Assembly (NCBI GenBank): GCA_044226015.1
Contig: JBGAHS010000008.1
Coordinates: 160,001-224,000 of the forward strand
Source of the DNA: Candidatus Obscuribacteraceae bacterium
GTDB lineage: Bacteria > Cyanobacteriota > Vampirovibrionia > Obscuribacterales > Obscuribacteraceae
Length of the DNA: 64,000 nt
Direction of reading: 5' to 3'
Positions 9,252-57,851 of this stretch are shown here, one piece after another. The notes beneath the pieces are model-generated. The model saw only the letters and a program-made list of their open reading frames with translations, was not told the DNA's origin and searched no databases. Position numbers and translations under genes: made by a program. Each line of letters opens with the position of its first letter. Positions within the stretch are counted from its first letter, which is position 1.

Positions 9252-9478
9252 AGGCTAGTCAAGGGTATCTGAAAGCCGGTTAACTTACCGCTTCGCCAAC
9301 AAGCGACACGGGCATTCTAAACAAGGTCTAACTTAAGTTGGTGATAATCAACCGCTGGGTTCACTAATTTTGTAGTCAAGCATCACGTCCCCTCGGCAAT
9401 ACGCCTGGTTCGACTAGCTCCAAAGAATGGGCTTAAATTCAAATTTCTCTGAACTTAACTCAGCAGTCGGATTTGCAT

Positions 9479-10654: not shown

Positions 10655-10860
10655 CGATAGAATCTCAGGAAAAGATAATGATAACGCGTAATTTGCTGCC
10701 GTGACACATACAAAGTTGAGAAGATGGCAATCTACAGGCGTTGAATGGGCGCGAAATTTAGCGCCATCGGGAAAAAACTCTTGTAAATGATGAAAAATCT
10801 ATGCTGGGAATTTTCCAGTTGATAACCTAGAATGCACGGGTACGGCTGCGGGAATTAACA

Positions 10861-12657: not shown

Positions 12658-12797
12658 AACTGAGCGTAGAGCCTGAATCAGGGTGATTAGCCAGCAGCGC
12701 CATTGTCTGTATTTACTTCTATTTCGACGAGCATTTTCTCATCGATAAATCGGCGCTGCGTTAAGAATTCACGACCGCAACTGAACCAACGCGAGCA

Positions 12798-13577: not shown

Positions 13578-14202
13578 ATAGTATATTGCAGAGAACTTTC
13601 GCTAGCCCTAAAAAGAACTAAATCAGAAAAACGCCAAAAATCTGAGAGCAAAATGACACCACCAGCAGTGCGGTTGACAATCCGGGTTAAGGAAGCTGAG
13701 AGAGCCGCCTGTCGACCATATCCAGCAATATCGCTCCAAAAATTGCGTCAAAGATCTTCACAATAGTGATTTAAGTGACAATGTTATCCATTTAACACTG
13801 GTCGATCGCACAAGTACCCCGAATTACATCGAATCGGATCCGCAATCATATACAGATCAAGGCTTTTACATGTCAACACAGATAGAACTCAGACATGAAG
13901 AGAATTCAGCATTTGTCGCACTTTTCATACCGCCAGAGACGCTCACTAGCGCGACGAAAGCGCTATGACTTTGTTCCCAGCAAAAGAAAAAATGTTTTTC
14001 GAGACAAAAAGGAGTTACCTCTCACGCCAGCTGGCGCTAGATCTAACCGCGATTTAGCTAAATTATTTTTATCCCCGATGACCGTAGTCTGCATGCCTTG
14101 CCACCCAACGGCAGCACCGTAGACACAGCGATATCCACCCCAGATATAACTTGCCAGTTGAGGTATAACCCCGGAGACTAGCAGTGAGTTCGAGTTGTCA
14201 GC

Positions 14203-14207
14203 AGGAG
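14203..14207 (+). promoter_or_regulatory. Shine-Dalgarno site of the giant gene
   Basis: AGGAG 7 nt upstream of ATG 14215. Confidence 0.75.
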
Positions 14208-14214
14208 ATATCGA

Positions 14215-17200
14215 ATGCGTATCCGACGTCGCAGAAAAATTGGTTCGGTGAAGAAGAGCGTTGTGCTTTTCGCTTCATCGATGATCTTGATTAATTCGTT
14301 CATGGCGACCCAGTCCGCCGTGGCGCAGAGCAGACCAGGTTCAGTTCCCACCAACATGAGTCAAGCGACTCCGATAGGCGGAACGACGAACCCAAATCCG
14401 AACACCAGACCTACGAATCTGGATTTGTCGGCTATGTCGGGAACGATAACTTCTGCGAACACCAGTCCGGTGAACATCCTCGTTGGAGGAGCCATGAATC
14501 ATGGCACTGTATCTGGTGGCACATCTCTGATCATCAATCCTGGAACCGCGGTAACTCCTGCACAATACGTCGCGGTCTTCGAAGCCATGCGTGGCAACCA
14601 GACTTTGTTGCTCAATGCACAAGGGGCTGCCACAGGCGGTTCATTCCGACTCAACTCAAACCAAGTCACAACTCTTTCAGGTCTCACTGTTCCAAGTGGC
14701 GTTACTGGGATTGCCACTGGTTACAATGCCAATTCTCCACTGCAAGTCGCTGGCAACGTAAACGTACTCGGTTCTCTCTACTCACTGCAAAATGCACCGA
14801 ACATGACATCGGTGTTGAACATGGACAACTTGTACATTGGTGCAGGCGGACTTCTCTCCGGTCGCATGCCTAATGGAATGGATCTGCCTGGGGTCTATTC
14901 GTCAGCTGGCATGTTGCTGAACGTCGCCAACTCCATGGTCAACCAGGGCGTAATCACAACACCTGGCGCGCTGAACATAACCACTGGTGGCAGCATCACA
15001 AACCAGAGTGTTAACAACGTTCAAGCGGTCATCAATGCACAGAATATCGTCCTCAATACTGGCACCGGCCAGATTGTGAACTCAGGCTTAATTCAGGCAA
15101 TGGATTCGTTGCGGGTCAATACTATTAATCCGACAACCAATCTCAACATCGACAATACTAAAGGTATACTTCAAGCGCTCGGCTCACTTAATTCAGTGAC
15201 CGGGCTTTTTGATAATAATGGGGTCATAACCCTCCGTGAGGATGGTGCCAACCTTGAGCTAGCTAATGTCAATGTCAGTGGCGGTCAACTTGACGCCGGC
15301 GGTGGCATCAATGCGTTCGGTAAGAACATCGAGATTCACACAGACAGCATCACAGGACCTTTGAGTTCAAAGGGTTCTGTTGCTCACGTGTCTGTGACAT
15401 CTGGCGATCTATATTTAGGTGACCAGATTCTTTCTGGCGACCCGACTTATTTCAACAACGCAGGCAATATCGTTATATCTAGCCTCACATCAGTGGCTGG
15501 AGACCTGGCAATCGTCGCATCTGGAAGCATCATCACCACCGGCGCGACAACAATTCAAACGACAGCCAACAACTTCAGTATCTTCCTTGGAGCAGGCTTC
15601 AATTTCACTACAGGTGGCGGCACAAACTCTCCGAGTTTCGCAACTAACGCACCGGGTGACACTACTAGCACACTTACGTTCGACGGAACTACGAATGCTG
15701 GAAAGTCCATCAACAGTTCCGGACAAATCCTCAATCTGCAGACAACCGGCACAGGTAGCATTACTCTGGCCAGCACCGGGTCAACAAATATCGGCGGCGG
15801 CACGATATCCAGTGAGAAAGGTGATGTCACAATCATCGCTGGAAGTGGGTTCACACAAACAGGTGGCAGCATAGGCACCACATCTGGCAATGTGACGATC
15901 GCATCAGCGGCTCCAGTCATCTCCAACACTTCTACGGTAGTGAACGGACTTGTTACGGGTTTACCTACAATAGGTACGAAGAATTCGAGCGCGATAACTG
16001 TACAGACCATCAACTCAAGCGGTGGTGGCAACGTTTCCATCCAGAGCAATGCTGGAGCACTCACGTTGGGTGGGGCAGTCACTACGGCTAGCGGCGGTAC
16101 CATCAGCATAGACACAGGTTCGATTACAAGCTCAGGAGTGAACATCGGTAGTGCGTCTGCGGGCGCCATAACGATCAATCCTGGCGCAGGCTCAATCAGC
16201 AGCCTCGGCTCTATCACGAGTGCCGCTGCCATTAACGTAGGCAGTGCCACTGCGACAGGCATCACTGTAGGCGCAGTCGACAACTCCGCTGGCACTGGCA
16301 ACCTCACTCTCCTGACTAAGACTGGAGGCGTGAGCGCTGGCGCTCTTACATCGATGGGTTCAATTGATGTGCAAGCAACAGATGGCAGCTCGAGCGGAAA
16401 TATTTCAACAGGAGCGGTCACGAACTCTGCTAGCGCTGCTGGTACTGTGAAGCTTTCCGCCGCATCCGGCTCTGTCACCACCAGTGGTGACATTTCAGCA
16501 AAAGGAAAAGTTGAAGCTGGCGACGGCAATGGTACGGGTCTGTCAGTCGGAAACGTAAGTAACTCTACAGGCGACATATTCCTTGCAAGCAACACCGGAT
16601 CTTTGACTGCTGGAACCGTCAACGCCGCAACTGGTTCAGTAGACGCCAGCAACAATAGCGGAGCAATCACTCTGTCCGACGTCACTGCTGGCGGAGCTGG
16701 TAAGCAAATCTCAGTGACTGCCAGTGGAACTACACAGGTGGGCAACCTGACAAACCTGGGTGGCTCCGTGAGTGTTGTTAACAGCAATTCTGGAACCAGT
16801 ACGACAACAGGTTCTATCACGACTACAGCAGCAGCTGGTGGTTCAGTTCTTGTACAAGGTGGCAACAGCATATCAACTGGTGCCATCGACACTCATGGAA
16901 CTGCTGGCGACGGTGGACTTGTTCTATTAGATGTGTCAGCAAACCCTAATGCTGACATTTCTGTGAGCGGTAACATTAATACCAGTGGTACCGCAAAAGG
17001 CGGGGACCTTTTCTTGCTTGCGAACAACGTAAGCTCAACAACTTCCGAAATAAGAGTCGACGGCTCTCTCAATGCCAGTGGTGGCACAGGCAAAGCCGGC
17101 TCCGTTGTAGTCGCTGAGTTCAACACATCAGCACTCAACATCAACAGCAACACAGCCAGCCCTGGCGCTAACACTATAGGACCTATCACCGCGACTTCTT

Positions 17201-23200: not shown

Positions 23201-26200
23201 CACTTCAGCCTACTGGATTGCAAATCGACGGCACAATCTCAAGCACAGAATCAGCTAGTGGAACGGCCGGCTCCGTCAACATCAAGGCAGCCGTAGGTGG
23301 CGGACTTACTGTCAATGGTACTACCGGACCTGACAACATCGGGGCGATCCAGGGCAACACAGTCTCTATTGAGAATACGGGAGCAATTTCGCTTCAAGGC
23401 GCTTCTGAGTCCATAAAAGCAACAAGCTCAGCCTCAGTCAAAGCTGCATCTATTAACACGAACGCAGCAGGCAACGGTGCCATCGATGCGCTTTCCGTCA
23501 CACTACAAACCAATTCCGGTGACATTGGTGCCGCATTTGCAATTTCGACAAAGAACGCAACGTCAACAACTATTGACGCAGCAAGCTCTGCAAGTGTCAC
23601 AAGCTTGACGGCAACGAATGTGAATCTTTCGGTGACTAATCTCGGAAACAATCTAACTTTCGTGAATTCAAATGGCAGCAATGTCAATTTAGCTAGCGAT
23701 ATCACAAGCAACAATAACGGAAATGTTTCAATTTCTGTCGCGAATTTAGCGGGCGACATTAGCTCCACCGGAAACAAGAACATCTCGACCGCGGCATCGG
23801 CAATAGCTGATGGCGGAGATGTGATGCTGTCGACTCACACTGGCAATATCAATCTTGGAACTGGCTCAATAAATGCCAGTGGAACAGCAAGCAACTTCGG
23901 TTCAGGCACTATCCAACTACTTGCAGGCACAACTGGTGCAGGCAACATCACTACCGGTAATCTGACCGCGAATGCGTCAGGCACGGGCACATCGACCGGA
24001 ATACAGCTGACAGGAGACATAATAACTGTAGGTTCTATATCCGCAACCTCCGGCTCGGGCACAGCAGGAAACGTTGATATCGTTGCAACAGAAATTCACA
24101 CTGGAAGCATCACGACAACATCAAGTGGTGCAGCTGGACATGTCGACTTGAGCTCCACATCTACTATTCAGGTGGACGGCAATATCACAGCAACAGGTGC
24201 GTCTAGTGGCTACGTGAGTCTGGCTGAACAATCAGCAACTCCATTCTCGTTCAATTCAGCAACAACCGGCACCAACACAGTGTCTGGCACCATCGCCGGT
24301 GGAGCAGTGAGTATCACCAACACTGGTGGCGACATCTCGTTCGGAGGCAATGCTGCGTCCACTGTGTCTCAATCAACATCGATTGTCGTAACAGCAGGCA
24401 AGGCGGGCACAGCAGGGTCAATCGACTCATCTTCAACATCTGACAATTCTGCGCTCATCTCAACTGGCACTATCATTCTCAACGCAAAAGACGGCGGTGC
24501 GATTGGTGCTAGCAACGCAGTAAAAGTAACCACTGCAAACAATGGAGTCATTGAGATATCCACATCTGGTGCCACGGGCAATGCCAAAGTCCAGGATATA
24601 GGCACGGGAACAACCACCAAGCTTCAAGTAACTTCACTCGGAAACAACTTGAGTTTCACGAAGGTCAACGGTGGAGATCTTCAAATTGACTCTGGCATTA
24701 CTTCAGGCACCACCACCGGCACTATACAGTTGGGTGTAACAGGCGGCGCAGGTTCAATAAAGAATCCAAACAACTTCACACTAACCTCTTCAGGAGCTAC
24801 AGGTGCCGTAGTACTTTCGACGGCTGACGGCAACATTGGTACATTGGCGAACCCAATTCTGGTAGACACCCGCAATCTGAGTGCAGCTGCAGGTGGAGCT
24901 GGAACAAACGTCTATGTTTCTAGCACCGGCGACACCACAGTCACGGGAACCAACAGCGCAGGCGGTACATACCAGTTGGCGAACGCCGCTGGAGACCTGA
25001 TAATTGACACGGCGATAAGCGCAGGCGACGTCCTGCTGCAAACAACCACGGCTACCAAACAAATCATAATGGCCGCTTCGGCCGGAACAATACAATCTTC
25101 GTCTGGCGCAGTAACTCTTCAAACAAACAATGGAAACGTTTCCAGTTCAGGTGGCAACCTCACCGTATTAGCAGCGAACGGAGCAAACTTCGTATTAGGC
25201 AGCGGTGATGTAGCATTCACCAGCGCAGGAGCGAAGGTTTCAGCAACTGCGACCACAGGTAACGTAGACCTGAACGGCTCTGATATCTCGACCACTGGCG
25301 GCAACATCAATTTACAGGCGACTGCAGGTTCCATCTCGAATGGTGGAGCTATCTCATCCAACAATGCTGCAGGTGATGCAGGCTCCATCACGCTGAATGC
25401 GAATTCAAATATAACAGTAGGTGCCGTGACCGCTAGTGCTACATCTGCAGATGGAGCAGGTGGTGCCATCAGTATCGATGCCCTTGGCGCCATCACCATT
25501 GGCGGTGCAGTCAGCTCTGCCACCATCGGCGTTGGCAAAACGGGCGGCGACATCAAGATCGGTCAGAGTGCCATGCCAACGACAGGTCTACAGATAGACG
25601 GCGCTATAGCCAGCACAGCAAGCGCGAGCGGACTCGCTGGCGCAGCTCAAGTGAAAGCTGATAGACCACTTTTGACCGTAAACAACGGTACGGGCGCTGA
25701 TCACATAGGCGCAATCGCAGGTGAATCTGTAACGCTTACGAACACCGGAAATATCTCTCTTGAAGGCGGCACTAACGCCATCACATCAGGTTCTAGCGCA
25801 GTGATCACTGGAGCCGCTATTGACACGAATGGGGCTGGAAATGGAGCGATACAAGCACCATCGGTGACACTTCATTCGACTTCGGGAGATATTGGCGCAA
25901 GTTTTGCAATCTCTACAAAAAATGCGACAGCTGTAGATATTGATGCCGCAGGCTCCGCCAAGGTTACAAGCTTGACCGGCACAAACGTAGATTTAACAGT
26001 CAGCAAGCTCGGTAACAACCTGACGTACCTCAACAATGCAGGAGGAACACTCACCCTTGCTAGTGATATCTCCAGTTTGAATAATGGAAACATCACCATC
26101 ACAAATACCGGTGGTCACATCGTCTCGGCTGACAAAAACATCTACTCATCAGTGAAGTCGAACGCTGCTGGCGGCAATGTGAACCTCATCGCAACTGGCG

Positions 26201-50200: not shown

Positions 50201-53200
50201 GAACCAACCGCTCAGTACAAGCCGTAGGCGGCGACGTCAACATTAAGTCGGATAGCATCACGCTGCAAGGCAAGGCGCTCATCACTGACACGGCAGCCAT
50301 CATCAGCGGCAACAATGTCAACTTCACTGGCAACACCGCGAACGGCACCTTCACCTCCGGTGCAATGTTGATCAGCAACTCAGGAACCGTAACCGCTAAC
50401 ACCGGCAACATCAACGTGAACAGCGCATCTAATCAGGATATGCAACTCACAGGCGATGGCAATGGTAACTGGAACGCCACAACCTCCAATGCATCGATTA
50501 ACTTCACCGCTTCGGCAAATGGCAGCCTGAAGCTAGGACTCGGCGACCAGACATTCACGGTCGGACCTAATGGCTCGCCTGGTGGCTCAGTCAACTTCAC
50601 AGCCGATGGCTCAGAAACGTCTACAGTGCAAATTCTGCCAGGCGTGACATATCAATTCCCGAACGATTACACACATGTTGTAGTCAACGTCGGTCAGTTC
50701 CTCGGCAACCCATCGCAATTCAACATCCATCCATCTGGTGGCAACCCGAACTCTACATTGACGATCCAGGGCAAATTTAGCGGCACCATCGCTAATAGCA
50801 CTGGACCAATCGATCTCGGCAACATCACAAACTTGAACTTTGCTGGACCAATCGCAATCTTGTCTGCAACAGATATCTTCTCTAGCAGCAGCAGAACAAT
50901 CACCGTCACTTCAACAGTGACCAATAATGGTGGCTCTCTGACAATGATTGCCGGTTACGCGTTCACACCTACAACAGTCGGAACCATCGGACCGACCGGT
51001 CAGGAATACACACTCGATGTTCCAAACTCGAAGGGCGGCAACATTGACCTCTCCAATGTATCTATTGATACAAGAGGACAAAACATCGGTGGCAACGTCA
51101 ACCTGGCAGCCAACGGAAGCATAACGCTGAGCAACATCGACACCCGTGCAACCGGTGCAAATGGACCTGGTGGCAGCATAACTGTCTACGGTAACGGCAT
51201 CACTGCTAACGGCACAATCAACACAGCCGGAACGGGTACTTCATCTAGTGGCACAGTAACCTTGAGTTCAGGCGCGGTAAGTGCAGTAAACGGAACCACA
51301 ATTCAGGACGGTTTCGTGACCAGCGCTGGCGGCTTCACCGCTGCATTCAGCGTACCGAGCACGACTGGATCACTGAGCACCGGAGCCAGCAGCAGCATCA
51401 ATGCTGGCAGCGTCAACCTGAGTGCTGGTTCAACAACACTTGCAGGTTCCATCACTGGAACTGGCGTCAACATCGCTAGCAACACCCTCTCGTCCACTGG
51501 CACTATCAATGCTGGAACAGGTACGGTCCAAATACAGACCGTGACTGCAGGACGCGGCATTAACCTGTTGAGCACAGGAACGGGCACACTCGATCTCTCG
51601 AACGGCACGCTCTCCTCCATTAGCGCTAGCAAGTTGATTATCGGTTCAGCCTCGGCAAGCGGAGCAATCACCTTGGGCGGCGCACTAGACATTAGCTCGA
51701 AATACAACCTCGAGCTGAGACAGGGCGGCGCTGGCGGAACGGTGACAACAACTGGTCAGACGATCAGCCTGGGCAACAAGGCGCTCAGCATCGCTGCCGG
51801 TGGTGCAGTGAACCTCGGAACTTACACTGGCAGCGGCAGCGCTGTTGATATAAGTGGTTCGTCAGTTACATTCAATTCAGCTGCTGGTAACGCGTCAGAC
51901 ACTACATCGGTAGTAGCAACGAATGGCAACATCGGCGGCGCTGGTGCACTGACGTCGAACGACCTCTCGCTTGCTGCAACCAATGGCAGCATCGGTATCG
52001 CTGGCACCCCATTCCTGACAGTGAACAACGGCAAACTGCATGCAGGTTCCGTCGCTAGCAACAGCGGCATCTACATCAACAATACCGGCAACATCACTGG
52101 CTTGACAGCATTCACGCTGGGGGCAGTTGACCTGCGCAGCAGTGGTGGAGCTACGCTTGATGGCACCGTCCACGGTGACACAGGTGTTATATTGAATATG
52201 ACGACCGGCAAACTCGACAATGCTGGCTTCCTCATCTCATCCACAAATACACCAATCGCAATCACAACAGACAGCATCGCACTGAGCGGTACAACATCGA
52301 TTGATGCAGGAACGAGCACGGTGACCATAACACCGACAACTGCAAGCCGTGCCATCAACCTTGGCACTGCAACAGGCGGACTGGACATCAGTGAAGCTGC
52401 ACTCAACTCTATCTCTGCGAAGACCTTGACTATCGGTTCAACTACCACAACCGGCGGCATCACCGTTGGTGGTGCGCTCAACATCACCGGACCGTACGAC
52501 CTTAACCTGATTCAGGGTGGCAGTGGAGCTTACACAGCAAGCAATGCAATCACCATCGCAAGCACAGGCGGTGCATACTCAGTTAGCACCGCTGCTGGAG
52601 CAATCAATTCTGGCAACATCACCAACAATTCCACAACGAATTCGAAGGTGCTTCTGCAAACTGGTACAGCCAACATCAATTTGACTGCGCTGGTTCCAGT
52701 TGCCCACGACATTGAACTCATCGCAGGCGGCATCGGTACGGGTTCAACGACAGGCGCAATTAATGGATTGTCCAATGGCGCAGTCAGCGGCACTTTGACC
52801 ATCACTCCTACCTTGTCGGGCACCGATGCTGGCACAGTAGTACTGAGAGGCAACAATCTCCTCACCGGCGCTGTCGGCCAACCAACAAAGTTCGTACTCA
52901 ATGTCTCAAGCGCTGCTGGCAATGCTGGTAAGGCGGTATTCGAGAGAACAGCCACCACCGCACTCATACCAACATCCGCTAACGTCTCGCTGCAAATCAA
53001 TAGCACAAGCGGCAACCAGGGCACTGCTGTTCTCAGCAACGGCGGCGACCTGACTTACGCCACCACTGGTTCACCAAGCATCACAACCGGAAGCAGCGGC
53101 AAGGGAGCAGATATAACACTGACAGCAGGTTCAGTTGCAGCAGGCAAACTGGTTGTTAGCGGCAACTTGAGTGCCAACGGTGCTAGTGGCTTCGCTGGCG

Positions 53201-56200: not shown

Positions 56201-57390
56201 TAGTCATCGGCAGCACCATTCCAACGACACCAGATCCAGGAAGCACACCATCTAATGTCTCCGTAACTGGCAACCATGGAATCTACACCGCATACTTCGG
56301 CAGCAATTCAGCCAACATGAACGTGACCGGAAGCTCCGCAAACAACGTGCTCACCATCGTCGGCGACACAGCGATTGTCTTCTCACCAGGTACAACATCC
56401 AAGATCAACTTGAATGGAACTGGCACCGGAGTCAAGATCACCGCTGACCCACCGGCGGCAGCCCCAATGCTGATGGTGCAAAATGGCGCAGCCCAAGTTT
56501 CAGGCAGCATCCAGAGCCACGTGAACGCAGCAGCGCAAAATGCAGCAGAAGGCTTCCAGATGATTCCGAGCGCTAACTCAATCTTCGCACCAGCGATGAT
56601 GGCTCCTCATTACGAACTGCCAGCAGCTAACGCTCCAAGCGCTGTGATGAATCCATCCAATCCTAAGATGCTTCAGGGTGGTGTAAGTGACTTCGAAGCT
56701 GCGGTCGACACCGCAATGGTCGAAGGAATCGGAGCAGCAATGCCAGCATTCAGCAACGAGAAGATTGGCGAAGTCGATGCAGGCGTCACAAGCGACAAAG
56801 ACCTGGGAATCGCAGCCGACATCTCCAATCTGAACAAGGCTGGACTCACAGCAGAGGGCAGAAAACTCGTTAAGCTGCAAAAAGGCTTCATGGTCTTCGC
56901 TCCATTCACCGACACTACCGTCGAAACACCATTCGGTAAGGTAGAAATTGACGCTAAGTCAGTCGCAATGGTCTGCGCTACACATGGTGGCACCGCAGTA
57001 TTCAACTTCGACGACACGCACCGTGATGCAATCACGATTCACGTCGGCAAGAACAAAGTCTCAGTTGCACCTGGACGCCATGTCACCGTCACCCATAAGG
57101 GAGTGAAGGGCTTCGATCAGGTCAACCCTGTTGAAGCAATCGGATATCGCGGTATCAATTCTGCTGATCTCTCTGGCGGCTTCCGCGTCTACAACGCAGA
57201 GTTCTCTGTTCCATCAGCAGTAGGAGCAATCAAACCGTTGAAGCAGCTGTTCAACTCCAAGAACAACGAAGCTCAGAAACTCACGAGCCACTTGATGAAG
57301 ACGGTTGCAGCAATGCTGCAAGCCAACCGCAGCGGAGAGCGCTATCAGCAAGTAACTCGCCCGAGAATGTCCGCATTCAACAACCAGTAA
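14215..57390 (+). CDS. Giant (14,391 aa) secreted beta-helix-like repetitive surface protein / adhesin with a conserved C-terminal globular domain
   Basis: 43,176-nt open frame with an RBS. Signal peptide at residues 1-37 (AVA-Q). Continuous G-x-[IV]-x-[LI] strand repeats with G/S/T/N/A-dominated composition, resembling filamentous-haemagglutinin-like solenoids. C-terminus homologous to the neighbouring paralogue. Confidence 0.9.
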   Translation: MRIRRRRKIGSVKKSVVLFASSMILINSFMATQSAVAQSRPGSVPTNMSQATPIGGTTNPNPNTRPTNLDLSAMSGTITSANTSPVNILVGGAMNHGTVSGGTSLIINPGTAVTPAQYVAVFEAMRGNQTLLLNAQGAATGGSFRLNSNQVTTLSGLTVPSGVTGIATGYNANSPLQVAGNVNVLGSLYSLQNAPNMTSVLNMDNLYIGAGGLLSGRMPNGMDLPGVYSSAGMLLNVANSMVNQGVITTPGALNITTGGSITNQSVNNVQAVINAQNIVLNTGTGQIVNSGLIQAMDSLRVNTINPTTNLNIDNTKGILQALGSLNSVTGLFDNNGVITLREDGANLELANVNVSGGQLDAGGGINAFGKNIEIHTDSITGPLSSKGSVAHVSVTSGDLYLGDQILSGDPTYFNNAGNIVISSLTSVAGDLAIVASGSIITTGATTIQTTANNFSIFLGAGFNFTTGGGTNSPSFATNAPGDTTSTLTFDGTTNAGKSINSSGQILNLQTTGTGSITLASTGSTNIGGGTISSEKGDVTIIAGSGFTQTGGSIGTTSGNVTIASAAPVISNTSTVVNGLVTGLPTIGTKNSSAITVQTINSSGGGNVSIQSNAGALTLGGAVTTASGGTISIDTGSITSSGVNIGSASAGAITINPGAGSISSLGSITSAAAINVGSATATGITVGAVDNSAGTGNLTLLTKTGGVSAGALTSMGSIDVQATDGSSSGNISTGAVTNSASAAGTVKLSAASGSVTTSGDISAKGKVEAGDGNGTGLSVGNVSNSTGDIFLASNTGSLTAGTVNAATGSVDASNNSGAITLSDVTAGGAGKQISVTASGTTQVGNLTNLGGSVSVVNSNSGTSTTTGSITTTAAAGGSVLVQGGNSISTGAIDTHGTAGDGGLVLLDVSANPNADISVSGNINTSGTAKGGDLFLLANNVSSTTSEIRVDGSLNASGGTGKAGSVVVAEFNTSALNINSNTASPGANTIGPITATSSVASPDILISNNVGDVHFGGPAGNAIDAKGLVQVTAGGSITGSGTGKGVIKSATNVTLIAGTDAGSFASNAIETNTTSLNATATTGEIYVNNTNAGVLNVDGVVSAKDVYIKTNNGIQLNTNIAPTANGGVTLETAAGDISSPGNKSINTSTGVGDGGYIVLLGTNVDLGTGTLTSNGNGSNKNAGGIGIIAPGGNVTTGAISANATGSGNSDGIGITAKNVHIQGNLTATSASGAGGGITVGTVGSAGGSISIDGNIDATGGTSGSVTLTENSSSQFGFNAGITGTNVIQGTVSGGAITIRNDGTGTIFFADNSATAVTGTSITVTAGTAGVSTGAILGLGTGTAGTNKGALVATTGTISLTSYSNGTSSSFIGTLNSQLVVDQQSGGLVSFTAEGTSSNVFLTDINSGDVTLAASGSNFGNNLSYNKVNGGNITLGTVSSTNNGTISVSISGGVGGDIIQGGSGLLSSPSGSVILSTSNGNIGASGTGGIDIQAANIQANAAGTAKNVFIDANASTSGAVTITGPAAGSSATGSFNLTLVNDGNLTVPSGKTVNGASVDLSTFNGDIKLNGAVTASNGTLHVATGTAGGDIYIGAQLTDLAGGNVLLEAKAPASTIFVTQTLGTTILGTGGDIILKSGSGGLKSNGNDITFSAIGKLDGTGLGGDVNTTGTSTGGGVNFFGATGIDLGTTKIVTDGATGAAGNIALTNATVGTDIKTGGISAVGGTNSVGGNLTAISSGSIYIVGDISTNGNGSGNAGFISLQGTSPSGAIRVDGNLTATSTGGAAGSVSLSETSSAPFQFNVGGSGAANSIKGTISAGAVTIYNYGGDVVFKGANAPGAIAQSSSIQVQAGQLGTTGSITSDGTANSVLNSTGGIALSAVDGGTIGSSTNAVKVKTGSGQGVQLYSDSATGDMFVEDLGTGSTFLQVSNLGHDLTYTKTAGGDLVLGSDIDSDNNGTVSLSITGTGSIDNSVGPYTITAGAVVLSTQTGSVGSNTKVILTDVDKITASATGGSVYITDIGAAQIVGTNSAQNVYSVIESGGNLTLNSAITAGSIDLQVTGGNDLVMGTTAGTLTSTNTGVTISTSSGKIISAGGNLNVHANGLANINLAGGNIDMTGSTGAKVTVESVTDNVNLNSATVTTKGGDVLLNGGVTGSIVNVAGITTNNSTGDAGSITLNAGGNITVGPLSANATSAPGAGGAITIDTPGSLYVTGSISSATVGPAKTGGAINIGQGVSTQPTSIQIDGTISSTATSGGTAGAVNIKAADGSGITVNGSNGAHNIGAVTGNSVAIENIASVTLLGTTDAIIASTSASVKGTSIDTDAATHGAINAKSVTLTSTSGSIGSTAPISTEGSTSTTISAATFAKVTSQTATNVDLSVTSLGTNLNFVNSSGSNVNIASDITSSSNGDINIIVLGTGSITSTSNKNLSTSAAADADGGDITLTTSDGDINLGTGSLNASGTAGAGNNDSGFIVLTAGTNGAITTGSISANAVNAGNSQGISLAAKAIHTGALSANSDSGTAGDISALSDTTIQVDGNISSLSSGAKGMVTLTEDSASAFNFNTGSAAANSVQGSISAGDVSITNFGGDVNFTGGGASDAIAQSTSITVVAGVAGTVAGSITSDGTTHSLINSSGTIDLTAYKGGTIGSSTNAVNLATGAGDTVQLFTEGATGDMFVSDKGTGSPTNLVVTSLGKDLTYTKSSGTLNLGSNITSLNSGTVKISISAAGDIDNSGNKTITAGAFNLSTTNGTIGTSSNPILSDVDKISASAGGATGKVFINNTGAAQIVGTNGATGTYQLKQTTGDLTLNSSISAGDIDIQLLTSGNDFIMGSTAGTLSSNTTGVTITTTNGDVLSSGGSFKISATGSADINLGSGVIDLSATSGAQVNIASGLAGSINLHGSTIKTLGGLVSLQGGGSILNGAAITTSNNAGDAGAITLKSGANITVGALTADATSAAGAGGAVSIDATGTVHVTGAISSATVGPATTGGDIKIGNTLQPTGLQIDGTISSTESASGTAGSVNIKAAVGGGLTVNGTTGPDNIGAIQGNTVSIENTGAISLQGASESIKATSSASVKAASINTNAAGNGAIDALSVTLQTNSGDIGAAFAISTKNATSTTIDAASSASVTSLTATNVNLSVTNLGNNLTFVNSNGSNVNLASDITSNNNGNVSISVANLAGDISSTGNKNISTAASAIADGGDVMLSTHTGNINLGTGSINASGTASNFGSGTIQLLAGTTGAGNITTGNLTANASGTGTSTGIQLTGDIITVGSISATSGSGTAGNVDIVATEIHTGSITTTSSGAAGHVDLSSTSTIQVDGNITATGASSGYVSLAEQSATPFSFNSATTGTNTVSGTIAGGAVSITNTGGDISFGGNAASTVSQSTSIVVTAGKAGTAGSIDSSSTSDNSALISTGTIILNAKDGGAIGASNAVKVTTANNGVIEISTSGATGNAKVQDIGTGTTTKLQVTSLGNNLSFTKVNGGDLQIDSGITSGTTTGTIQLGVTGGAGSIKNPNNFTLTSSGATGAVVLSTADGNIGTLANPILVDTRNLSAAAGGAGTNVYVSSTGDTTVTGTNSAGGTYQLANAAGDLIIDTAISAGDVLLQTTTATKQIIMAASAGTIQSSSGAVTLQTNNGNVSSSGGNLTVLAANGANFVLGSGDVAFTSAGAKVSATATTGNVDLNGSDISTTGGNINLQATAGSISNGGAISSNNAAGDAGSITLNANSNITVGAVTASATSADGAGGAISIDALGAITIGGAVSSATIGVGKTGGDIKIGQSAMPTTGLQIDGAIASTASASGLAGAAQVKADRPLLTVNNGTGADHIGAIAGESVTLTNTGNISLEGGTNAITSGSSAVITGAAIDTNGAGNGAIQAPSVTLHSTSGDIGASFAISTKNATAVDIDAAGSAKVTSLTGTNVDLTVSKLGNNLTYLNNAGGTLTLASDISSLNNGNITITNTGGHIVSADKNIYSSVKSNAAGGNVNLIATGGKNINLGAGIIDVSGNGLGNNGSGGVYIEAKGGLVKTGTITANAVNAGLTAGIWIESDNVYTGSLTAKADAGASSTITIKAVTGIQVDGDINATATNPLNSGSISITENSSSTLNFNVATAAPNSIMGTIAGGAVTITNKGSGGVKFLGEGSTNAISQSNSITVTAGDNGAVSGSISSDGSNKSMLVSTGNIILVANSSGPGLGGSIGDSTNSIIIQTATGKNVTVETDFVNHGGDVFVEDRGTGTTNLFIGSSGLGGDLTYKKTAGGDLKLNTNIEGAGFASVTFSISGGTGSIDNSLDKIITANNKLDLSTSDGSIGTLAHPILSIAANLRASAGGTSSNAYVNNGADVTIYGSNGAGSNYQVVNSTGTLTIDGSITAGSVLLNNQINGAAIIMGSNAGTIQSTSGGVTLMANNAEINNTAGGNLTIDANTGASIQLGTGDIALGGTGKVSITAKGGNVDLNNSDIFTEGGLVLLDASPSASGSIVNVGIIQTNAGATTDGGSVTLKAGSSTSGNITTGTITASGGSSNGKGGAVSIDGGGTITIPSITSDGTGGNNGGAVSIGTNTAFTSLSMTGNISTRGESSGAGNTVTLKGSASGAISIPGAIDTRGGNTGFGGAGGDVTMNAGGTIFVGAITTDAYGAGVNGTSGKLTVGNSLAPSSFTAGSISTQAQTPDGLGVAKGGAVTITAAGVINVAGGIDSHSNIFLGSTGGAVTLTNTDNVSGTTTLGPIKSSGSSGGQISISGGLSISVTGSLDARATATAGPGTGGQVTIDNSSSAGGSISVSNNIYSKGSESGSGSKITLSGSSTGTISVFGSLDSQGGNSGTGGAGGDISINAGSTVFVGAIATDAYGAGAAGKAGSVTVGDIQTPSSFTTTAISTQARGVGGVNASGAVSITAGNIAIAGGIATNANSVAGTTGGAITVVNNAAGSTSIGLINTSAATGGTVSMTGGSSISATSDIDTHGTNGAGGGVTLDNSAVIDGTISVSGGINANGTNGGGAVVLKANNVASTTSTIRVTNGITTTGGTGAAGAVTVAVKNTASNLIVNANTSFIGANIIGGITSTGASGNAVQVSNSGGNVEFDQAGNAINATGAISVVAANSIIGHGIGFGTLKSATGVTLNAGNSAGSNAGDAISTNTASLTANATLGSVFVDNTNASVLSLKASKAGTNFTVRTNNGIQIDGDTGSSGNGNVFLTTSAGDITRNLVTPYTVSTGNGNITITAPAGSVGTAFGGNNDVATSTGSSGSLTFQAANSVFVTESGSSTIVGTNNANGPSGNGYNVTFATGNMTLATAITGKSVALVTQEANKQIVMGTGAGTITSTTSSVLLTTNGGGIISTGGDLNISAATNATLALNTSTNTVGSIDLSGVAGKTVNIVAPSGIDLKGGGNTGANITTLGGLVLLQAVGGGATITNVGSITTTNTAGTGGTVTVNANGSVSIGGAITAKGTGGAASGGVIALTAGGANGLFVNGAIDNTTTGTGVGGLVTVTDNSPSALTVNGSSGTSHVIRGSITTNGTVNVAATGVVLAGASNAINSTGASSGIGINAKTGSITADAAGNGGLNSPVIVLTGQAGVGSVSGNIPITITTTGTTSFGSLASGTAAETFIRTTNGGLSVAAPTVGAVLATGISGDGDIKVNVAAGGTLTVNTGDPIIATGSGRSITLGADTINLVSGVLINAGANGTVNIAPTTAGNAITVGGGAGYLTTTNLTTQILTKDLTIGNLSTYNGAITLGAAIDTSSGAAGSAVGRYNLSILTQKSIDTNTFSITTGVNSITLNATGSSQAVDVDQVSSTSGAINILGNGINLNQSINATTGGKITIASTGGAITGNAQAIGSVGSGDIIIDNNGGSISNIGAVSGAGFVRIGTSNGTSSTATGVSISTIDNTSGTGAVVVLTDVGGITTGKIDSNGAVTIKATNNSNSGAVVVGGDITNTGGTGSVVVDSATGSVTTARVESHGAITLGNTSGGTGVTINGAILNTGGSGNIQLLANSGDISGLHTLTSVGDLTISNINGSIGSTTAIGNLFGGGAGKTITVNAGSTGRVGSITNDSASGNGGTITVTTTAAFQSTGAVSAQSTAGSAFSGGIISIKSSSGTVEVDGSVNSNTTGTGTAGSISIDAGTGTLEINKGSAGANVIQGTLSSDKGNVIVQSNSILLRGASPAITGRNIGLNARTGDIQAAVAGQGGLSATNNIAMTAVTGIGTVGGNPITISSSGSTLSSKTSSSGSTYISVTSGNLTVGNVSVGPVNPNTGVQAPGSIQIDVPGNLAILDGSPINTTGTSQTIDIHANSFTGSGTTTTLIDAGNTGSVLIAPTTNGQAIALGGSGYLSGTMLSKIKALNLQVGNLGTYTGSVTLAGLINNGTAAAGSTAGSYNLSILSNGTIDTSAFTITTNTSNLTIDSEESTSGTATKVGALIGTGGNISVTGNKGVTLAGVINNAGTGTISVLAKQGTLDVQNNTISTTGTGTVTINNLNGAISNVGSVSGAGVINIGNASGTTSISITTGTIDNTASSTNSAVNILSSGAISAAGRSVNSDGVITLSGNGGVTIGGLNNSGSGVASAIHVNDGTEGGAVSIGAVSSVGSIAIGNNSNTAGVTLTNGAIDNSTASTPQSISIRSNTVGISGNGHNVISTGTITLSSNSGPVVIGALNNSGVGASGDIFVNSGSETGAITVDAINSRGDINVGNSTGTAGVTLTGVINNSSAASAKNVTILANNSGISGAGQTVTSIGNITLRAPGGVNIGALNNSGASTAATINVNDGTQSGTIAVAGALSRGTITIGNSTGTSGVTISGAISNATAASAQSVTVHSASGGISGAGQSISSIGSIVLDGVGGVNIGDLTNSSSTTAAAIQVNNGTQSGAVAVGNVNSVGAISIGNNTATAGVTLNGNISNVTASTPQSVSILSDSVGISGAGKTVSSLGGITLSSDTGAVSIGALTNNGVGAAGDVNVNSAAETGAVSVGAINSKGAVNVGNTASASVTLNGLIDNSSAASAKDVSVLASGAISGGSNTITSVGNITLRGNGGVSIGALNNSGASSAASVLVNDGTEAGSVSVGSISSKGDITVGNSTGSTGVTLGGDINNSSASSPQAVTILSSSGGINGTGRAIDSLGAITLRAAGGVTIGTLTNSGTGAAGDVSVNDQTQSGVVSVGAISSKGAVKLGNTSSTSVTLGGNIDNSSAAAAKDVTILAAGALNGSVRTITSLGNITLRADGGVTIGDLDNHTGSGSVSVNDTNQNGALVVGAVTSTGNITLGNLTNTSGVALNGDLDNHTNASSDILVYTATGDISNTVVRSINAGHAFDIEASNGSIGNTAPLGNLTAGGAASKITAKGVIGAGDVTNHGGSISIVNSDNTASGSTTVGTVDTSGAAGGTISITGGNDVSAVALNSSATSTTAGSITVDVSASTNSKISVLGAINASGATNGNFVHLYADNGSSVSSSIRVNNGINTSGSGLAGDVEVKVGSVGTLIVNADNGATGNNTIGSITATGASGGSVLLENKAGSVAFGRTGNAVNSFGTITVNAANIVGSAVGSGKLNSTTGVNLNVFSGSGNIGDASTQVQVNAPSIKIGQTGDVSGAVNPTKIGINSLSSGALTVSNLTNAGTGLTASGDIYISNNGGFNINKDISSSGSGTITLAALSAGNILSVGGGTIVSTAGSAVLSTADGSIGSNSPVYNPVLTNVAQLQANATNGSVYVSDADALTINASSGASSGAFDVRLSGSGDLTVAAPVSAQSVNLASNQGSGTAAGNIVVNSGVTATNGSLTLSAGAGGGAGAVGSINLNSALSATGGNVNVSSSVNGGDINVGAQVSATSGDINLDAQGSASKIAITASGLNPALKTTSSGNVILSSGTGGLTSSGNAIIISSVGDIDASALGGDVNSSGTGNGGAVDFSASNGFINLGSNNIVSSGTTSGTGGTVTLHAKDAVTAGNITAKGVGTSQAGGVVDITSSSVLAPIVVGNIDNTGTANGSSVTVNAAQNIVTVGSVKSNGAITIGNSSGATGIILNGDISNSGGTGSVQLLTNTGDISNATSRNISAAGALTINAGGNIGNTVALGALSAGGGANALTVDGNGVIAVGSVSNNAGAVSITNHAVAAGTLSTGAITTDAIGSGTGGKVSLSVVGDLTVNGNLTAKGLGSSNSGGVIELTGSNIRVDGSVDNTSTGSGTAGTTTINTAAALTIHGSAGANTISGTIDSDGNVVVLANGVTLAGAGDAVSALGIGINAGTGAISASLAGGGGLNASTIALNATTGIGSITGNKPIILSATGTVNVGSKATGAAADTYLSITNGSLVIGNETVATGTASVSANGVSSGGNTKIDTTSGDLHISTAISGTNVDLSTTGVGNHIIMDVGAGQIHATNGDVKLTTNGGGISSQGGSLDVLATGGNAIIALSQGANIGTLDLSGQSGATVTIKGQAVDLKGAGSANADITTANGAVSLTSDSGSISNVGSITTGGAKVDLKATGGNIAAGAIDTSAAAGGKLTASATGSITIAGSIKTDGTAGAGGGVDLSSGTSTTVSGSISAKGNAASGGTVSLSSDGLQVDGSINNTGTGTAGISLTNVQSTTFNGIAGINVIAGTINSSGNVEIQSAGVLLAGAGSAISAKGIGINSSAGISATAAGNGGLDAATVALTAAAAIGSAAIPISLSSTGTTLFGSSTSSAATSVQTTAGDLTVGSATVGAISANGISAPGDVTIKVAATKNLSIATGSPVTSSGVGKQINISADSLTGWGTGVLVNAQASGSVSFVTTSNSAMEVAGTYISATQLGQIRAKDVQFGNNGSYTGDITLGGTVNNGNAAAGDAAGGSYNLSLLTGGKFDASGNTINTKVNNLSIDAESSSATAVKTGAIVATGGNVQITGNNGVTLGGAISNSGTGLIDIVSKTGTLDGGDATISSTGTGTISVNNIAGNINNLGAVSGFNSITIGNSSGGTGIVMHGNISNAGGTGNVQILNATGIINGGSFDVSSAGDLTITNSGAGAISFTGGTLKSTGGNIAVTQTGAGALQVAAVDNTSNGSITLNAVLGSTTAGTVTADGGLVTIGNGTTGTGVVLNGDIDNTKTGGGGSGVSVLSGLGGISGGTHSITSDGIVNVTGAGAVSIGAIDNTTGTSTVTVDSTGSTVAVGAVSSKNSISIGSFGSTGVTLSGLIANDGTGASGSVTIHTLSGGISGTQNVQSKGAIDIVAINGDVSMGSVNNASGTGVVNVEASNGISNVGAVTSTSKITIGSVTGAGVNLNGAVSNSGGTGDVIIEANSGAINGGSNNVTSAGDLILSNGSAGGISFTGGTLSTSGGIVSVKTHGTGNSSVNAISSNGGAITVDANNGVTTVGLSGGAVNSGAGAITLGNSTSGTGVTLGGDVSSTGSGNISLLANSGNINGGSNNVTAGGSLTVTLATGAGNISFTGGTLTAKGGSLDVAQNGTGNVVLNDLSQQALGQSVNVDATAGTISVANITAAGGVVNLGNILGNTGITLTGNIDNTAGGAGAAVNVQAGNGAISASTRTITSDGQVFLYAKNAISVGDINNSTGSQSVTIDSTSGAINTAAVTSKGQINIGSNTSASVTLGGKIDNSTSLAGISITASGAIIGGSNSVAGGPGPLVITSKNTGGVSFSGGQISSNSGAITVQSLGTGDTQVAGVNSQGGTVIINAAKGTTTVGFGSNTVSSGSGSMTIGNNTSGGGTGVVVNGDLSSTGTGNIAILADTGSISGASHNVTAGGGLTVNIANGAGTIDFTSGILTAKGGSLIVTQLGTGNITLSSLSQQSTGDIVFVDASAGTVSVGNVNAFGGQVTLGNNGTGAGVTLNGNIVNTKAGGGGSSVTIYAGAGSIAGAGKTITSDGQVLLDSATGTTIGDINNTTGSSTVDLDSNGAISTGSISSNGAITVGSNSTTSVTLGGDISNFGGTGDVSVTAVGAINGGVNNVTAADNLTIHSITSGGITFTAGTLSANNGAVDVASLGAGNTSVNAVSNNGGSITVDASNGLTTVGTVFNTTGNIFLGNSTGGTGVTLNSSVSTGAAGVVSILSNGGSITGNSHPIILGSGTFTVDPTGGSVVGLGAVTSSGTINIGSATTGSISITGKLDNSTGVGKDINIQSGSGAGGISTVALSSSGNINVRTINTSTGDVTVTGKINAVTGSGDVTVDAKSGQVSVLGIVAKGNIALGNSSTGKGVILNDDIDNQETGATGTLTISAANGGISGVHDLFSNSTISVNAVAGDVTIGTADNSTGSASITVAAANGITTISGASSDGGFVSIGDGATGTGVVLNGNIANTKTGGGGAGVLVLSGLGGISASGRSITSDGQVDVLGQNAVSIGNIDNSTGSGTVNVNSNINTTSVGSVTSQGAITLGNSVGGTGVVMNGDVKSITTGGAISINSASGTINGNSFNTFTQNGSITINPGTGNVTALGDVQTKAGVINIGTSDGISSTASGVSINGTVDNSTSVGSALNILSNTGGVKTGNVSGGGAVNLKSLTSGDVDLGSTISANGVLSISAAGTGSIKSGAASALSGIGVKLTANTLALANGSSINAGGSTVVIDPNANQSMGVNVTGASTETFLVSNDLLSNISNTSLVTLGNNSTSGGLNFYNSLTTGYNLALRNAGGITMKSGSTLAVGANDLTIAAGGAVSLETVTASTAKIDVSGSSVTFNQAFGGTSADVKLTANSGSLSGAGTVSASKLDMSASDGSITLSTAVAGTMKAVTSGTSAGNIALVNTGALTSFTASSGGAASTVSLTNTGDVILGAAGVSGPAGVTLKLGGAAGVALTTTGSSISSSNGDVAITTDVLNGSGSISSSATGKVSIETSTAGRAINLVAGSGGLLLSTAQLAAISTKTLVVGSDTATGSITLGGALDITGKYDLELRQAGAGGSVTTTGQTLTLGTQNLTVNADTVDTGDVTGTGSSTIIILSLTGVNVHGALAADRIGIRAFNGSIVGAGGSLSANQIALRATANVGSPLQILGNSTLGAQGGTGVNLVSTGDMTVDAVTVGPVSASGIVSGGNVTVALASNKNLQLNSAISAPGQTIQLNADKLNGWAATPTLIDAGTSGAVVISTASTTQNIQVGGTYISTTQLGQIKALDLQIGEVGVYNGNISLGADLTTGAQPAGQASGSYNFALVTKASIDTSGHSITINGNDLILNADTSVTAGKVVGTGGNISIFGKNAGITLTDTLTTAGAGDISLSAQGGTIDGGIKALAAGSGTVSVVNTAGNITNLGSISSAGLVGVDGSTGVALAGTIDNTASTSNDIVSIISAGGAISGGQNINSNGAISVTTLAAGAITVGALDNSTGNGSVTVNSAAGSISVGQIKSTNAITLGNLTGAQGVTLNGTVSNAGGTGDINISTKSGSIDGTFDVSAAGSLSISSAGNVGKNAALGNLSAGGGSNFLSISSAGAIAAGKLTNAGGFIQANTSSTTEAVTLGDISSKASTGGTVIISGGSNISTGAIDTQGTSGDGGDVNVNNSTGLTLVGGSITADGAASGGSGGAVGLFGKGVTVNGSISSKGFGGANVGGSISIDALTGSTQVDGSINNSTTGTGGVNGTIAVVSNPGLTVNGSTAGANVIKGQVISSGSVTLQSINDVILAGAGDAVVARDIGIESSAGAIKAAAAGEGGLNASTIALTSITGIGTSTAAINITGAGPTSIGSSTGAADTFIASTNALTVDNTNVLGISANGVSGSGDVTISVGSGNLHVNAGSTIASGTSNSITLNTNSISVGAGASINAGVLGTVNLRPTTASTAINLGSGASGLIVTQGVLNVITAKTLNVGSSSSTGGINANSAVDISGLYDLNLTQGTGGAIDTSGGAITIGSQALTVLTPAGITLGAVSGTSGTVDLIGSTVDFKGNVNLNAVGSKLTVGSGGDVTQTVGTTLTARRIDINVTSGNIGGAGSIATSTGVLNLLTSLSGNAKVTNSGAGSVTLNSSTFGSLTFSSDDTIDVGSSGVAGSAVSLSTTANNGNINALNGSISSSAGNLDLTANGSGAVTVGTNRSVQAVGGDVNIKSDSITLQGKALITDTAAIISGNNVNFTGNTANGTFTSGAMLISNSGTVTANTGNINVNSASNQDMQLTGDGNGNWNATTSNASINFTASANGSLKLGLGDQTFTVGPNGSPGGSVNFTADGSETSTVQILPGVTYQFPNDYTHVVVNVGQFLGNPSQFNIHPSGGNPNSTLTIQGKFSGTIANSTGPIDLGNITNLNFAGPIAILSATDIFSSSSRTITVTSTVTNNGGSLTMIAGYAFTPTTVGTIGPTGQEYTLDVPNSKGGNIDLSNVSIDTRGQNIGGNVNLAANGSITLSNIDTRATGANGPGGSITVYGNGITANGTINTAGTGTSSSGTVTLSSGAVSAVNGTTIQDGFVTSAGGFTAAFSVPSTTGSLSTGASSSINAGSVNLSAGSTTLAGSITGTGVNIASNTLSSTGTINAGTGTVQIQTVTAGRGINLLSTGTGTLDLSNGTLSSISASKLIIGSASASGAITLGGALDISSKYNLELRQGGAGGTVTTTGQTISLGNKALSIAAGGAVNLGTYTGSGSAVDISGSSVTFNSAAGNASDTTSVVATNGNIGGAGALTSNDLSLAATNGSIGIAGTPFLTVNNGKLHAGSVASNSGIYINNTGNITGLTAFTLGAVDLRSSGGATLDGTVHGDTGVILNMTTGKLDNAGFLISSTNTPIAITTDSIALSGTTSIDAGTSTVTITPTTASRAINLGTATGGLDISEAALNSISAKTLTIGSTTTTGGITVGGALNITGPYDLNLIQGGSGAYTASNAITIASTGGAYSVSTAAGAINSGNITNNSTTNSKVLLQTGTANINLTALVPVAHDIELIAGGIGTGSTTGAINGLSNGAVSGTLTITPTLSGTDAGTVVLRGNNLLTGAVGQPTKFVLNVSSAAGNAGKAVFERTATTALIPTSANVSLQINSTSGNQGTAVLSNGGDLTYATTGSPSITTGSSGKGADITLTAGSVAAGKLVVSGNLSANGASGFAGGKLTLNSNSTTAFTIGATKATNGITGSMSVTGTPNGDITITNRGGGITESVAITNVSNYKLDTTGATNGTLSISKAITASNSVTLIAGGSGTINPGANVITAPTVALTSGTGAITVKTAASTISANMIGTSGTGAVSITNASGNVTLLDSSARGAFSLTNSTGNITTNAITAGGNVTVKTTKTNAAVAVNGNVTGGASSTVSLTANGTGSISGTGTVTGKTVTLTTGTGAIGTGTALGTALKVKAVSLSANTQGSVNLDNLGNGSSTFTITASASKSSFTVNSATPIVINPALTNVTSANITTSGVNAITLKASIGNTTTTTAINVSTGSGNILSSGTLSTTAAGNVTLGTTGSIGSSTAAVKVNSPTLAVNGASHTLLNLNSTRTAGVNVTTDLASTGIATFTSSGPTTLLGVSGTNVVLKSVGNTTLNGDIIASGTLSLTETGSGTTTMAVGKNISAAGKVTITTVGATTLNNVTSTAGAIALTAKGALTTNDITSNSTTSGAVTISQTAVGASTFGAITGQSVTVNLIPNSSTVKNNVNFNGAITASNGLVKISETGTSNALQSTIFAGGAAIQASGNVTVTTMGAASLLGVSSGVGGAGSITITTKGTTSVGALDANGSTTTGSITLNQTGGGSTTLNSTANADGAISITSSGVTSGVGIQTSGAVTAAGNVTLKATGSNAGVTLGDNVSSANTSTGTVAITASGSGNLTQTAGAVSAKTITLTSSTGSIGTGTALGTAFKVSSLASAFTLSANTKGAANINNTSAVPMTLSAASTDANTFTLRSSGNLTLTAPLTNASAIVIDTTAAGVGVGNVAINGSTLGGSSKTTAVSISTNDGDVSAKGTITTNNVSGSGVTLASTTGDFGTKTAAVKMNTPSLLSANVGGLLNVSNTNTGSTTYGAITAKSVTLSTANNSTFNGNISTSGGTGEVVITQTTGQMTVNGNISASGTNALITLMEKANNASSGITLNNSTLSTNYTTKPTGQTTFPMPGQISVVIGSTIPTTPDPGSTPSNVSVTGNHGIYTAYFGSNSANMNVTGSSANNVLTIVGDTAIVFSPGTTSKINLNGTGTGVKITADPPAAAPMLMVQNGAAQVSGSIQSHVNAAAQNAAEGFQMIPSANSIFAPAMMAPHYELPAANAPSAVMNPSNPKMLQGGVSDFEAAVDTAMVEGIGAAMPAFSNEKIGEVDAGVTSDKDLGIAADISNLNKAGLTAEGRKLVKLQKGFMVFAPFTDTTVETPFGKVEIDAKSVAMVCATHGGTAVFNFDDTHRDAITIHVGKNKVSVAPGRHVTVTHKGVKGFDQVNPVEAIGYRGINSADLSGGFRVYNAEFSVPSAVGAIKPLKQLFNSKNNEAQKLTSHLMKTVAAMLQANRSGERYQQVTRPRMSAFNNQ
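18472..27400 (+). repeat. Intragenic ~770-aa super-repeat (about 3.5 copies, plus a shorter upstream copy)
   Basis: Anchor L[ST][YF]xK at 18472, 20008, 22300, 24649 and 26977, giving spacings of 512, 764, 783 and 776 codons. Flanking sequence is colinear (e.g. GAAQIVGTN; GDAGSITL/GDAGAITL...GAGGA; LQIDG). Confidence 0.85.
33700..36100 (+). repeat. Intragenic ~96-aa tandem repeat, 8 copies
   Basis: Anchor G-[GPA]-V-x-I-G-x-L-x-N at 33862, 34156, 34444, 34732, 35023, 35305, 35593 and 35875 (spacing 282-294 nt). Confidence 0.88.
41000..45400 (+). repeat. Intragenic degenerate ~90-120-aa repeat tract
   Basis: Recurrent [IL]GNxxxGTGVxLNG[DN]IxN, INGGSNNVT and ISFTGGTL segments at roughly 280-360 nt spacing. 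Confidence 0.7.
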
Positions 57391-57512: not shown

Positions 57513-57851
57513 TTAAAATTCTCTCCACCAGGCGGAGCCATCACTGTGAATCGCGGGAAACTCAATTTGAGTTCTTTCGCCTTCTCCGTCTTCTATAAAC
57601 CAATTCTCGTCAATGTCTTCAGGAATATCAAAAGGCGGGTCATTTTCTCGATTGCATTCAGTGGTCCAAAACTCCCAAATATGCCGGTAAGGATCTGCAG
57701 CAGGTGTCAGCTGAATTAGCCCGCCCATCCACGGAAAATCCGAATCCAAATTAGTTATGGTGCCGACAAGTTCAGAACCTCGGAAAAGCCTCAGCTGCTC
57801 CTTCCCGGTGAATGACGGCATGGGTCTGGAAACTGACATAGGAAACCTCAC
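57513..57851 (-). CDS. Small acidic, Trp-rich hypothetical protein
   Basis: Globular-looking sequence (LRLFRGSELVGTI...DSDFPWMGG...AIHSDGSAWWREF). Probable start ATG 57839 after GAGG. Fills the gap between the two giant genes. Confidence 0.7.
   Translation of the reverse strand: MRFPMSVSRPMPSFTGKEQLRLFRGSELVGTITNLDSDFPWMGGLIQLTPAADPYRHIWEFWTTECNRENDPPFDIPEDIDENWFIEDGEGERTQIEFPAIHSDGSAWWREF

Follow-up and report, generated by a model that had tools for sequence, protein, structure and literature searches.

The 43-kb gene at positions 14215..57390 (+ strand) of the window, the 64,000-nucleotide stretch analyzed here, encodes a giant fiber protein of 14,391 aa, one member of a large, order-wide and undescribed family with about 50 members in this genome, which combines an N-terminus that is TPS-like by modeled fold with a tail modeled as a FecR-type fold. 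The export partner of the giant is probably encoded elsewhere in the same genome, and gene linkage and co-occurrence point to a two-component route, which probably resembles T11SS and would recognize the FecR-fold tail.

The frame starts 6 nt downstream of a ribosome-binding site (AGGAGA, 14203..14208) and opens with a Sec-type signal peptide (aa 1–37, 14215 to 14325), recognized by eye from a basic N-region, a hydrophobic stretch, and AVA at residues 35–37, in agreement with the preliminary description of this DNA; a signal-like start recurs among the paralogues. An RPG motif follows the signal peptide; 31 of 48 large paralogues also have one within their first 130 codons. The conserved N-terminal domain (NTD; aa 63–447, 14401..15555) is modeled as a capped right-handed β-helix (pLDDT 93.7), as had been anticipated, and its top four structural matches are all TPS secretion domains. 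The G/S/T/N-rich solenoid body (15556..56442, ~14,000 aa), predicted from its sequence to be β-helical as well, carries old internal duplications (a unit of about 770 aa present 4 times, and units of about 96 and 328 aa) and a Pro/aromatic-rich stretch (aa 12,069–12,242, 50419..50940) marked by a composition scan as a candidate inserted domain. The solenoid ends at an ADPP motif (56443..56454), followed by an Ala/Pro/Met-rich linker of about 117 aa (56455..56805); an [AG]DP motif lies at most 450 aa, and mostly 90–245 aa, before the C-terminal domain in 24 of the 48 large paralogues. The C-terminal domain itself (CTD; aa 14,198–14,388, 56806..57378) is modeled as a FecR/PupR CJM-type β fold with 3 helices (11–14% identity to FecR/PupR structures). 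All these features lie on the + strand. The protein has a mass of 1.36 MDa, consists of G, T, S, A, and N to 64%, and contains 4 Trp and a sole Cys, residue 14,254, inside the CTD, so that the early estimates of well over 1 MDa, few Trp, and one Cys in the terminal domain all hold. If the solenoid is continuous, the rod would be roughly 300 nm long, assuming that each coil of some 22 residues rises by 0.48 nm. Scans of the giant, cut into 6 pieces, against Pfam and NCBIfam gave nothing above cut-off, a related-locus search with its NTD gave no matches, and sequence profiles of the CTD, the NTD, and the barrel described below gave no meaningful match of solved structure. Self-cleavage of the CTD at the Gly-Thr site of FecR looks unlikely because, by eye, the giant has no Gly there.

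The source genome (8.19 Mb, 92% complete) is designated G000 and its relatives carry other G numbers. Iterated profile searching with the final 200 aa yielded 67 matches among the 45,558 six-frame ORFs of G000; a search with an N-terminal cap profile gave 39 matches, and 37 of these have the CTD as well. Fifty family ORFs of at least 1,400 codons account for 7.4% of the DNA of G000 and are about 7- to 10-fold depleted in Cys and Trp; the Cys content of the family is 0.17% versus 1.2% in other genes, which bears out the Cys avoidance pointed out earlier. The gene had been presented as a single one, yet it is the longest of about 50 paralogues in G000, and the second longest adjoins it in convergent orientation (10,968 aa, G000:C12:217944-250880; 3′ end at 57944..64000 of the window, − strand), with the same NTD and CTD and 41% identity to the giant over the last 2,000 aa. 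Family members range from about 1,000 to 19,700 codons: a 19,702-codon frame ending in the CTD is found in the relative G064 (C2 near 2394888), and frames of more than 10,000 codons occur also in G003, G005, G006, G035, and G038. Two members in G000 have the NTD and a short acidic tail instead of the CTD (C10:420504-429710 and 433146-442265). The CTD profile matches 2,651 unannotated clusters at 50% identity, and in almost every one of the 150 clusters examined the domain is C-terminal. Where homologues carry names, these are “hypothetical proteins” of Ca. Melainabacteria and Ca. Obscuribacterales, on which the assignment of G000 to the order is based. The CTD is present in 20 of 21 Obscuribacterales genomes versus 0 of 9 from other orders, and was found in none of 150 further genomes of the phylum from outside the order. 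The literature searched, mostly outside subscription journals and in part as partial text, yielded no account of the family, and the words “Melainabacteria” and “FecR” are absent from the accessible main texts of 2 surveys of giant proteins (10.1101/2023.11.21.568195 and PMC11573180). A second set of very large proteins in G000 (5,000–7,800 aa; C12:364608, C9:323696, C11:406378, and others) has acidic N-termini, no CTD, and, by eye, no signal peptide.

In the single-contig genome G041, the only giant adjoins a Skp gene and an unannotated protein. The homologue of this protein in G000 (C8:340215-343556) lies downstream of a Skp gene (PF03938), and G000 encodes a second copy (C11:696019-697485) and a divergent third one (C9:602749-604041). 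The first 320 aa or so of the C8 protein alternate in hydrophobicity, with about 12 strands; fold and strand count are read by eye from this alternating pattern, and the family probably represents a 12-stranded outer-membrane barrel without POTRA domains. It matched nothing in Pfam (8 barrels), NCBIfam, or the PDB. Language-model features place it near unnamed, BBP2_2, and SlipAM clusters (0.94–0.95), which serves as a lead only. PF04575, PF10082, and PF13557 gave no match at barrel loci; the genome search with PF04575 had silent controls, and PF13557 matched in 8 of 21 genomes, on other genes, with none at the listed barrel loci and none in G000. The barrel occurs in 72 of 81 genomes of the order and in none of 150 other genomes of the phylum. 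Its scores split at a gap between 232 and 206 bits, where we placed the cut for a main clade (E 1e-65), and the low-scoring group falls on a long branch in a quick tree (2 rows). Besides the Skp gene next to Omp85, G000 holds 3 Skp paralogues, one of them between 2 giants. Predictions of a complex between the C8 barrel and the CTD of the giant scored 0.00 in both runs, with the controls not folded, and carry no weight either way; the pair may not be cognate. Two other approaches to finding barrels were abandoned: a home-made β-barrel predictor ranked the Omp85 of G000 378th, and a filter for C-terminal aromatic residues missed the candidate, which has a long tail. A divergent barrel recurs in a cluster with a TPR-like and a polyproline-CTD protein (G000:C9:602749-608472, G068 L075, and G035 L183), and a PTD motif is seen in the small polyproline-CTD proteins of this cluster and at the barrel N-terminus.

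To describe gene linkage, we took 150 of the 212 barrel matches, removed 12 rows from 5 separately examined genomes, and used every second of the remaining 138 rows, the first 60 such windows, 2 pairs of which overlap the same loci. A CTD or NTD lies in 31 of these 60 barrel windows compared with 15% of random 15-kb windows in the CTD-rich G000, and a gene with either domain directly adjoins the barrel at 24 of the 60 loci, in 13 of 24 genera (1.9% by chance), while Skp is found within 2 genes of the barrel at 14 of them. When only the first locus per genus is counted, 5 of 24 have an adjoining family gene (p 8e-5); the p-values for linkage and co-occurrence are inflated by kinship, related genomes not being independent. 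Counted by hand, a CTD gene is found no more than 10 kb away for 5 of 5 barrels in G064, 2 of 3 in G041, and 1 of 1 in G068, versus 1 of 3 in G000 and none of the 2 in either G067 or G079, so that linkage is weak where the family is most expanded. This includes G000, where no barrel adjoins a giant and one of the 3 is near a small CTD gene. Across the 81 genomes of the order, the main-clade barrel and the NTD (E 1e-20) occur together in 52 and are both absent from 21, with 8 genomes having the barrel only and none the NTD only; among genomes at least 90% complete the corresponding counts are 41, 10, 1, and 0, and with a looser NTD cut (E 1e-8) they become 54, 17, 6, and 4. Both states, barrel and NTD together or both absent, are found inside 5 genera (g3, g22, g25, g26, and g28), and this covariation within genera therefore argues for more than a shared origin at the level of the order.

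By its Sec signal and modeled TPS-like fold the giant resembles the TpsA adhesins of type Vb, such as EtpA, HMW1, HxuA, and FHA, as presented in the accessible text of PMC5422565. A divergent form of TPS is an alternative, in which TpsA-like fibers pass through the single Omp85/BamA or a cryptic TpsB and the new barrel is an anchor or accessory. The structural matches of the NTD speak for it, as does a POTRA_2 match within the Omp85 of G000, and the accessible part of PMC5422565 indicates that TpsAs may stay tethered by a periplasmic C-terminal domain. Weak PF05594 matches were obtained for 4 of 30 paralogue N-termini. However, PF05860 matched neither the giant nor the 30 paralogue N-termini, and a genome-wide search, with silent controls, gave none either. 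Omp85 is matched in 75 of the 81 order genomes by one gene each, bar one genome with 2 partial pieces; searches with PF01103 and PF03865 recovered no TpsB and at most one whole Omp85 per genome, and the 10 weak ShlB matches all fall inside the Omp85 gene. As a positive control, the ShlB profile matches 100 of 151 genomes of the phylum, and in the same-class family f6, unlike Obscuribacterales, all 50 of 50 genomes have 1 to 3 ShlB-type matches. In G000, which has one Omp85 and 2 secretins, a search with its own Omp85 sequence found no second copy; the gene is single-copy, sits by eye in a bamA-skp-lpx context, and Omp85 is present also in order genomes without giants. Further differences from TpsA adhesins are the FecR-fold tail on nearly all members, the number of paralogues (about 50 per genome), and lengths of 14,000–19,700 aa. 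Passage through Omp85 would moreover leave the 52-to-0 dependence of the NTD on the barrel unexplained, and we regard divergent TPS as unlikely. The preliminary description had assumed Sec plus an unknown outer step: this view stands, with the barrel now a candidate for that step, and the standard PF05860 domain with a cognate TpsB elsewhere in the genome, named there as the contrary case, was found in neither part. It had also suggested looking for TpsB/BamA paralogues that co-occur with the family; the genome has one Omp85, no TpsB was found, and what co-occurs is the separate barrel family. T1SS was set aside because the Sec signal of the giant does not fit it.

As to which end of the fiber meets the barrel, many barrel neighbors are small proteins that combine a signal-like start and a disordered stretch with the CTD, without the NTD; 3 of the genomes with the barrel only (G040, G069, and G090) have such small CTD-only genes nearby, and G068, which lacks giants, keeps small CTD genes and a divergent barrel. 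Because the small neighbors carry the CTD alone, it is this domain, and not the TPS-like NTD, that appears to be the common element. Two giants with the NTD and without the CTD count against export keyed to the CTD. The domain also turns up in a hybrid histidine kinase (G000:C6:296884-300378, L081), where it is followed by a Pro-rich linker and lies between the signal peptide and a membrane helix, and would therefore be periplasmic in that protein; if the CTD is an export tag, its presence in such a kinase might link export with signaling. Another protein (G000:C7:634476-637568) joins a signal peptide and a degenerate CTD to a long charged repeat helix like that of TolA. Because the CTD sits in the periplasmic part of the kinase, it may be a periplasmic docking module rather than an export signal. 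Taken further, the family would consist of filaments or spacers retained in the periplasmic envelope and held on the barrel through the CTD, much as FecR-type regulators contact receptors of the outer membrane, which would accommodate the CTD in the kinase, before the TolA-like helix, and after polyproline linkers. Yet a TPS-like N-terminus and a ~300-nm rod suit an extracellular fiber, and lengths of about 1,000–19,700 codons are as expected of adhesins, so that we consider periplasmic retention improbable.

In a secretin route, of type II or pilus-like, the CTD would serve as the targeting signal; one of the 2 secretins in G000 lies about 2 kb from a family gene. This route leaves the barrel linkage unexplained, and Cys avoidance, which is typical of proteins in unfolded transit, argues against it. 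The fold of the CTD is that of the periplasmic CJM subdomain of FecR/PupR (PDB 4m0h and 6ovm; PMC7186176, accessible part), unlike which it comes without an STN domain, anti-sigma domain, or membrane helix and has 3 C-terminal helices instead. According to the same part of that source, FecR-type periplasmic regions bind STN domains, which would favor secretins, but PupR binding needs both CJM and STN, and in the CTD helices take the place of STN. PF04773 gave no match in 29 family members, and no TonB-dependent receptor was found in G000. We judge export through a secretin to be very improbable.

For the preferred, T11SS-like route, we envisage that Sec moves the giant into the periplasm, where the extra Skp paralogues would hold it unfolded; it would then cross the outer membrane through the order-specific, POTRA-less barrel of ~12 strands, as suggested by linkage and co-occurrence. 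The FecR-fold CTD would engage the barrel, because giant and small barrel neighbors alike carry it, and could either lead export or fold in the periplasm and tether the fiber. Finally, the TPS-like N-terminus may nucleate folding of the ~300-nm rod, most likely for adhesion or floc formation; the adhesive role is inferred by analogy, and no result points to the prey contact proposed in the preliminary description. The β-helical passenger, linker, terminal helix, and ~12-strand barrel recall type Va autotransporters and FapF/COG4313, with their 12-stranded barrels, but here the barrel is a separate gene serving many passengers. Autotransporter Pfam domains matched neither the CTD nor the barrel, and a 12-stranded C-terminal barrel is absent from the giant's own chain by Pfam scan and CTD model. 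The Slam barrel has 14 strands, compared with about 12 by eye in the candidate. In T11SS (Slam/DUF560), as the accessible part of PMC12282271 describes it, a separate barrel lies beside cargo genes that share a C-terminal domain, and Skp takes part; the present system resembles it in the separate barrel gene beside cargo, the shared C-terminal domain, and, by linkage only, Skp. It differs in that the tail is a FecR CJM fold and not a TbpB-type eight-stranded barrel and in its far larger cargo, and T11SS is described there in Proteobacteria; PF04575 matched none of the 8 barrels scanned, yet the barrel may be a distant Slam. The export route thus lacks what defines TPS, a TpsB with POTRA domains and a 16-stranded barrel, and what defines T11SS, an eight-stranded cargo barrel. 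It is possible, if doubtful, that we are dealing with an undescribed system, made up of a POTRA-less ~12-strand barrel unrelated to Slam, dedicated Skp, and a FecR-fold C-terminal tag, with no TpsB, and exporting fibers of up to ~2 MDa, some 50 cargoes, through 2 or 3 barrel genes.

If true, the proposed route would provide an exit for proteins that rank among the longest in bacteria. The lineage concerned belongs to the cyanobacterial phylum, is non-photosynthetic, and occurs in wastewater sludge. The route would also mean that β-helical passengers of the TPS type need not be tied to Omp85 translocons, and would assign a function to the FecR-fold domain, whose 2,651 clusters are unannotated; a portable tag and a small barrel for megadalton rods would be useful in protein display. 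One cargo of about 1,100 aa has barrel genes on either side and provides a minimal pair.

The 14,391-aa frame is real, and the unbroken ORF first reported is confirmed. In a 2016 activated-sludge run from another study, a 39.5-kb contig aligns to window positions 26001–45771 with 54 substitutions and no gaps, and a second contig takes over the match at 45764; the comparison covers 20 of the gene's 43 kb, with 19.8 kb matched, and leaves aside a further run from which this DNA may itself derive. Among 40 of the 54 substitutions, 26 are silent and none creates a stop, with silent sites making up 26% (p 4e-7), and pN/pS for the same 40 is 0.19. Near-identical internal DNA repeats were not found in the giant, the best reaching 70% over 250 bp or 78% over 83 bp. 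Although the comparison with other assemblies spans less than the whole gene, an assembly artifact or dead frame is hardly credible, because near-identical repeats are lacking and the independent contig is gap-free with mostly silent substitutions, and NTD or CTD frames of more than 10,000 codons recur in the relatives named above (G064 among them).

The genes flanking the giant encode glycan and sulfation enzymes, a sulfite exporter, and a TPR protein, with no transporter for the giant among them, matching the earlier remark that the window holds no export gene. Clustering the neighbors of giants across G000 returned only kinases, response regulators, TPR proteins, and glycosyltransferases. 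The glycan/sulfation cluster upstream (124-13577) comprises a CysD/CysNC-like pair, a sulfotransferase, a GT2, a DegT aminotransferase, 2 acyltransferases, a PMT_2 glycosyltransferase, and a nucleotidyltransferase, and could modify surface glycans or the S/T/N-rich fiber. Between the 2 convergent giants lies an acidic, Trp-rich ORF of 112 aa (57513-57851, − strand) with no match in Pfam or NCBIfam. The upstream regions of 50 family genes have no long motif in common; the octamer GCATTTGT precedes 7 of the 50 versus 0.44 expected, which is marginal after multiple testing. The 640-nt leader of the giant contains 2 terminator-like hairpins (13947-13965 and 14036-14058, + strand), with 3 such hairpins found in the region versus 0.6 expected, and attenuation or antitermination control of the giant is possible on this pattern.
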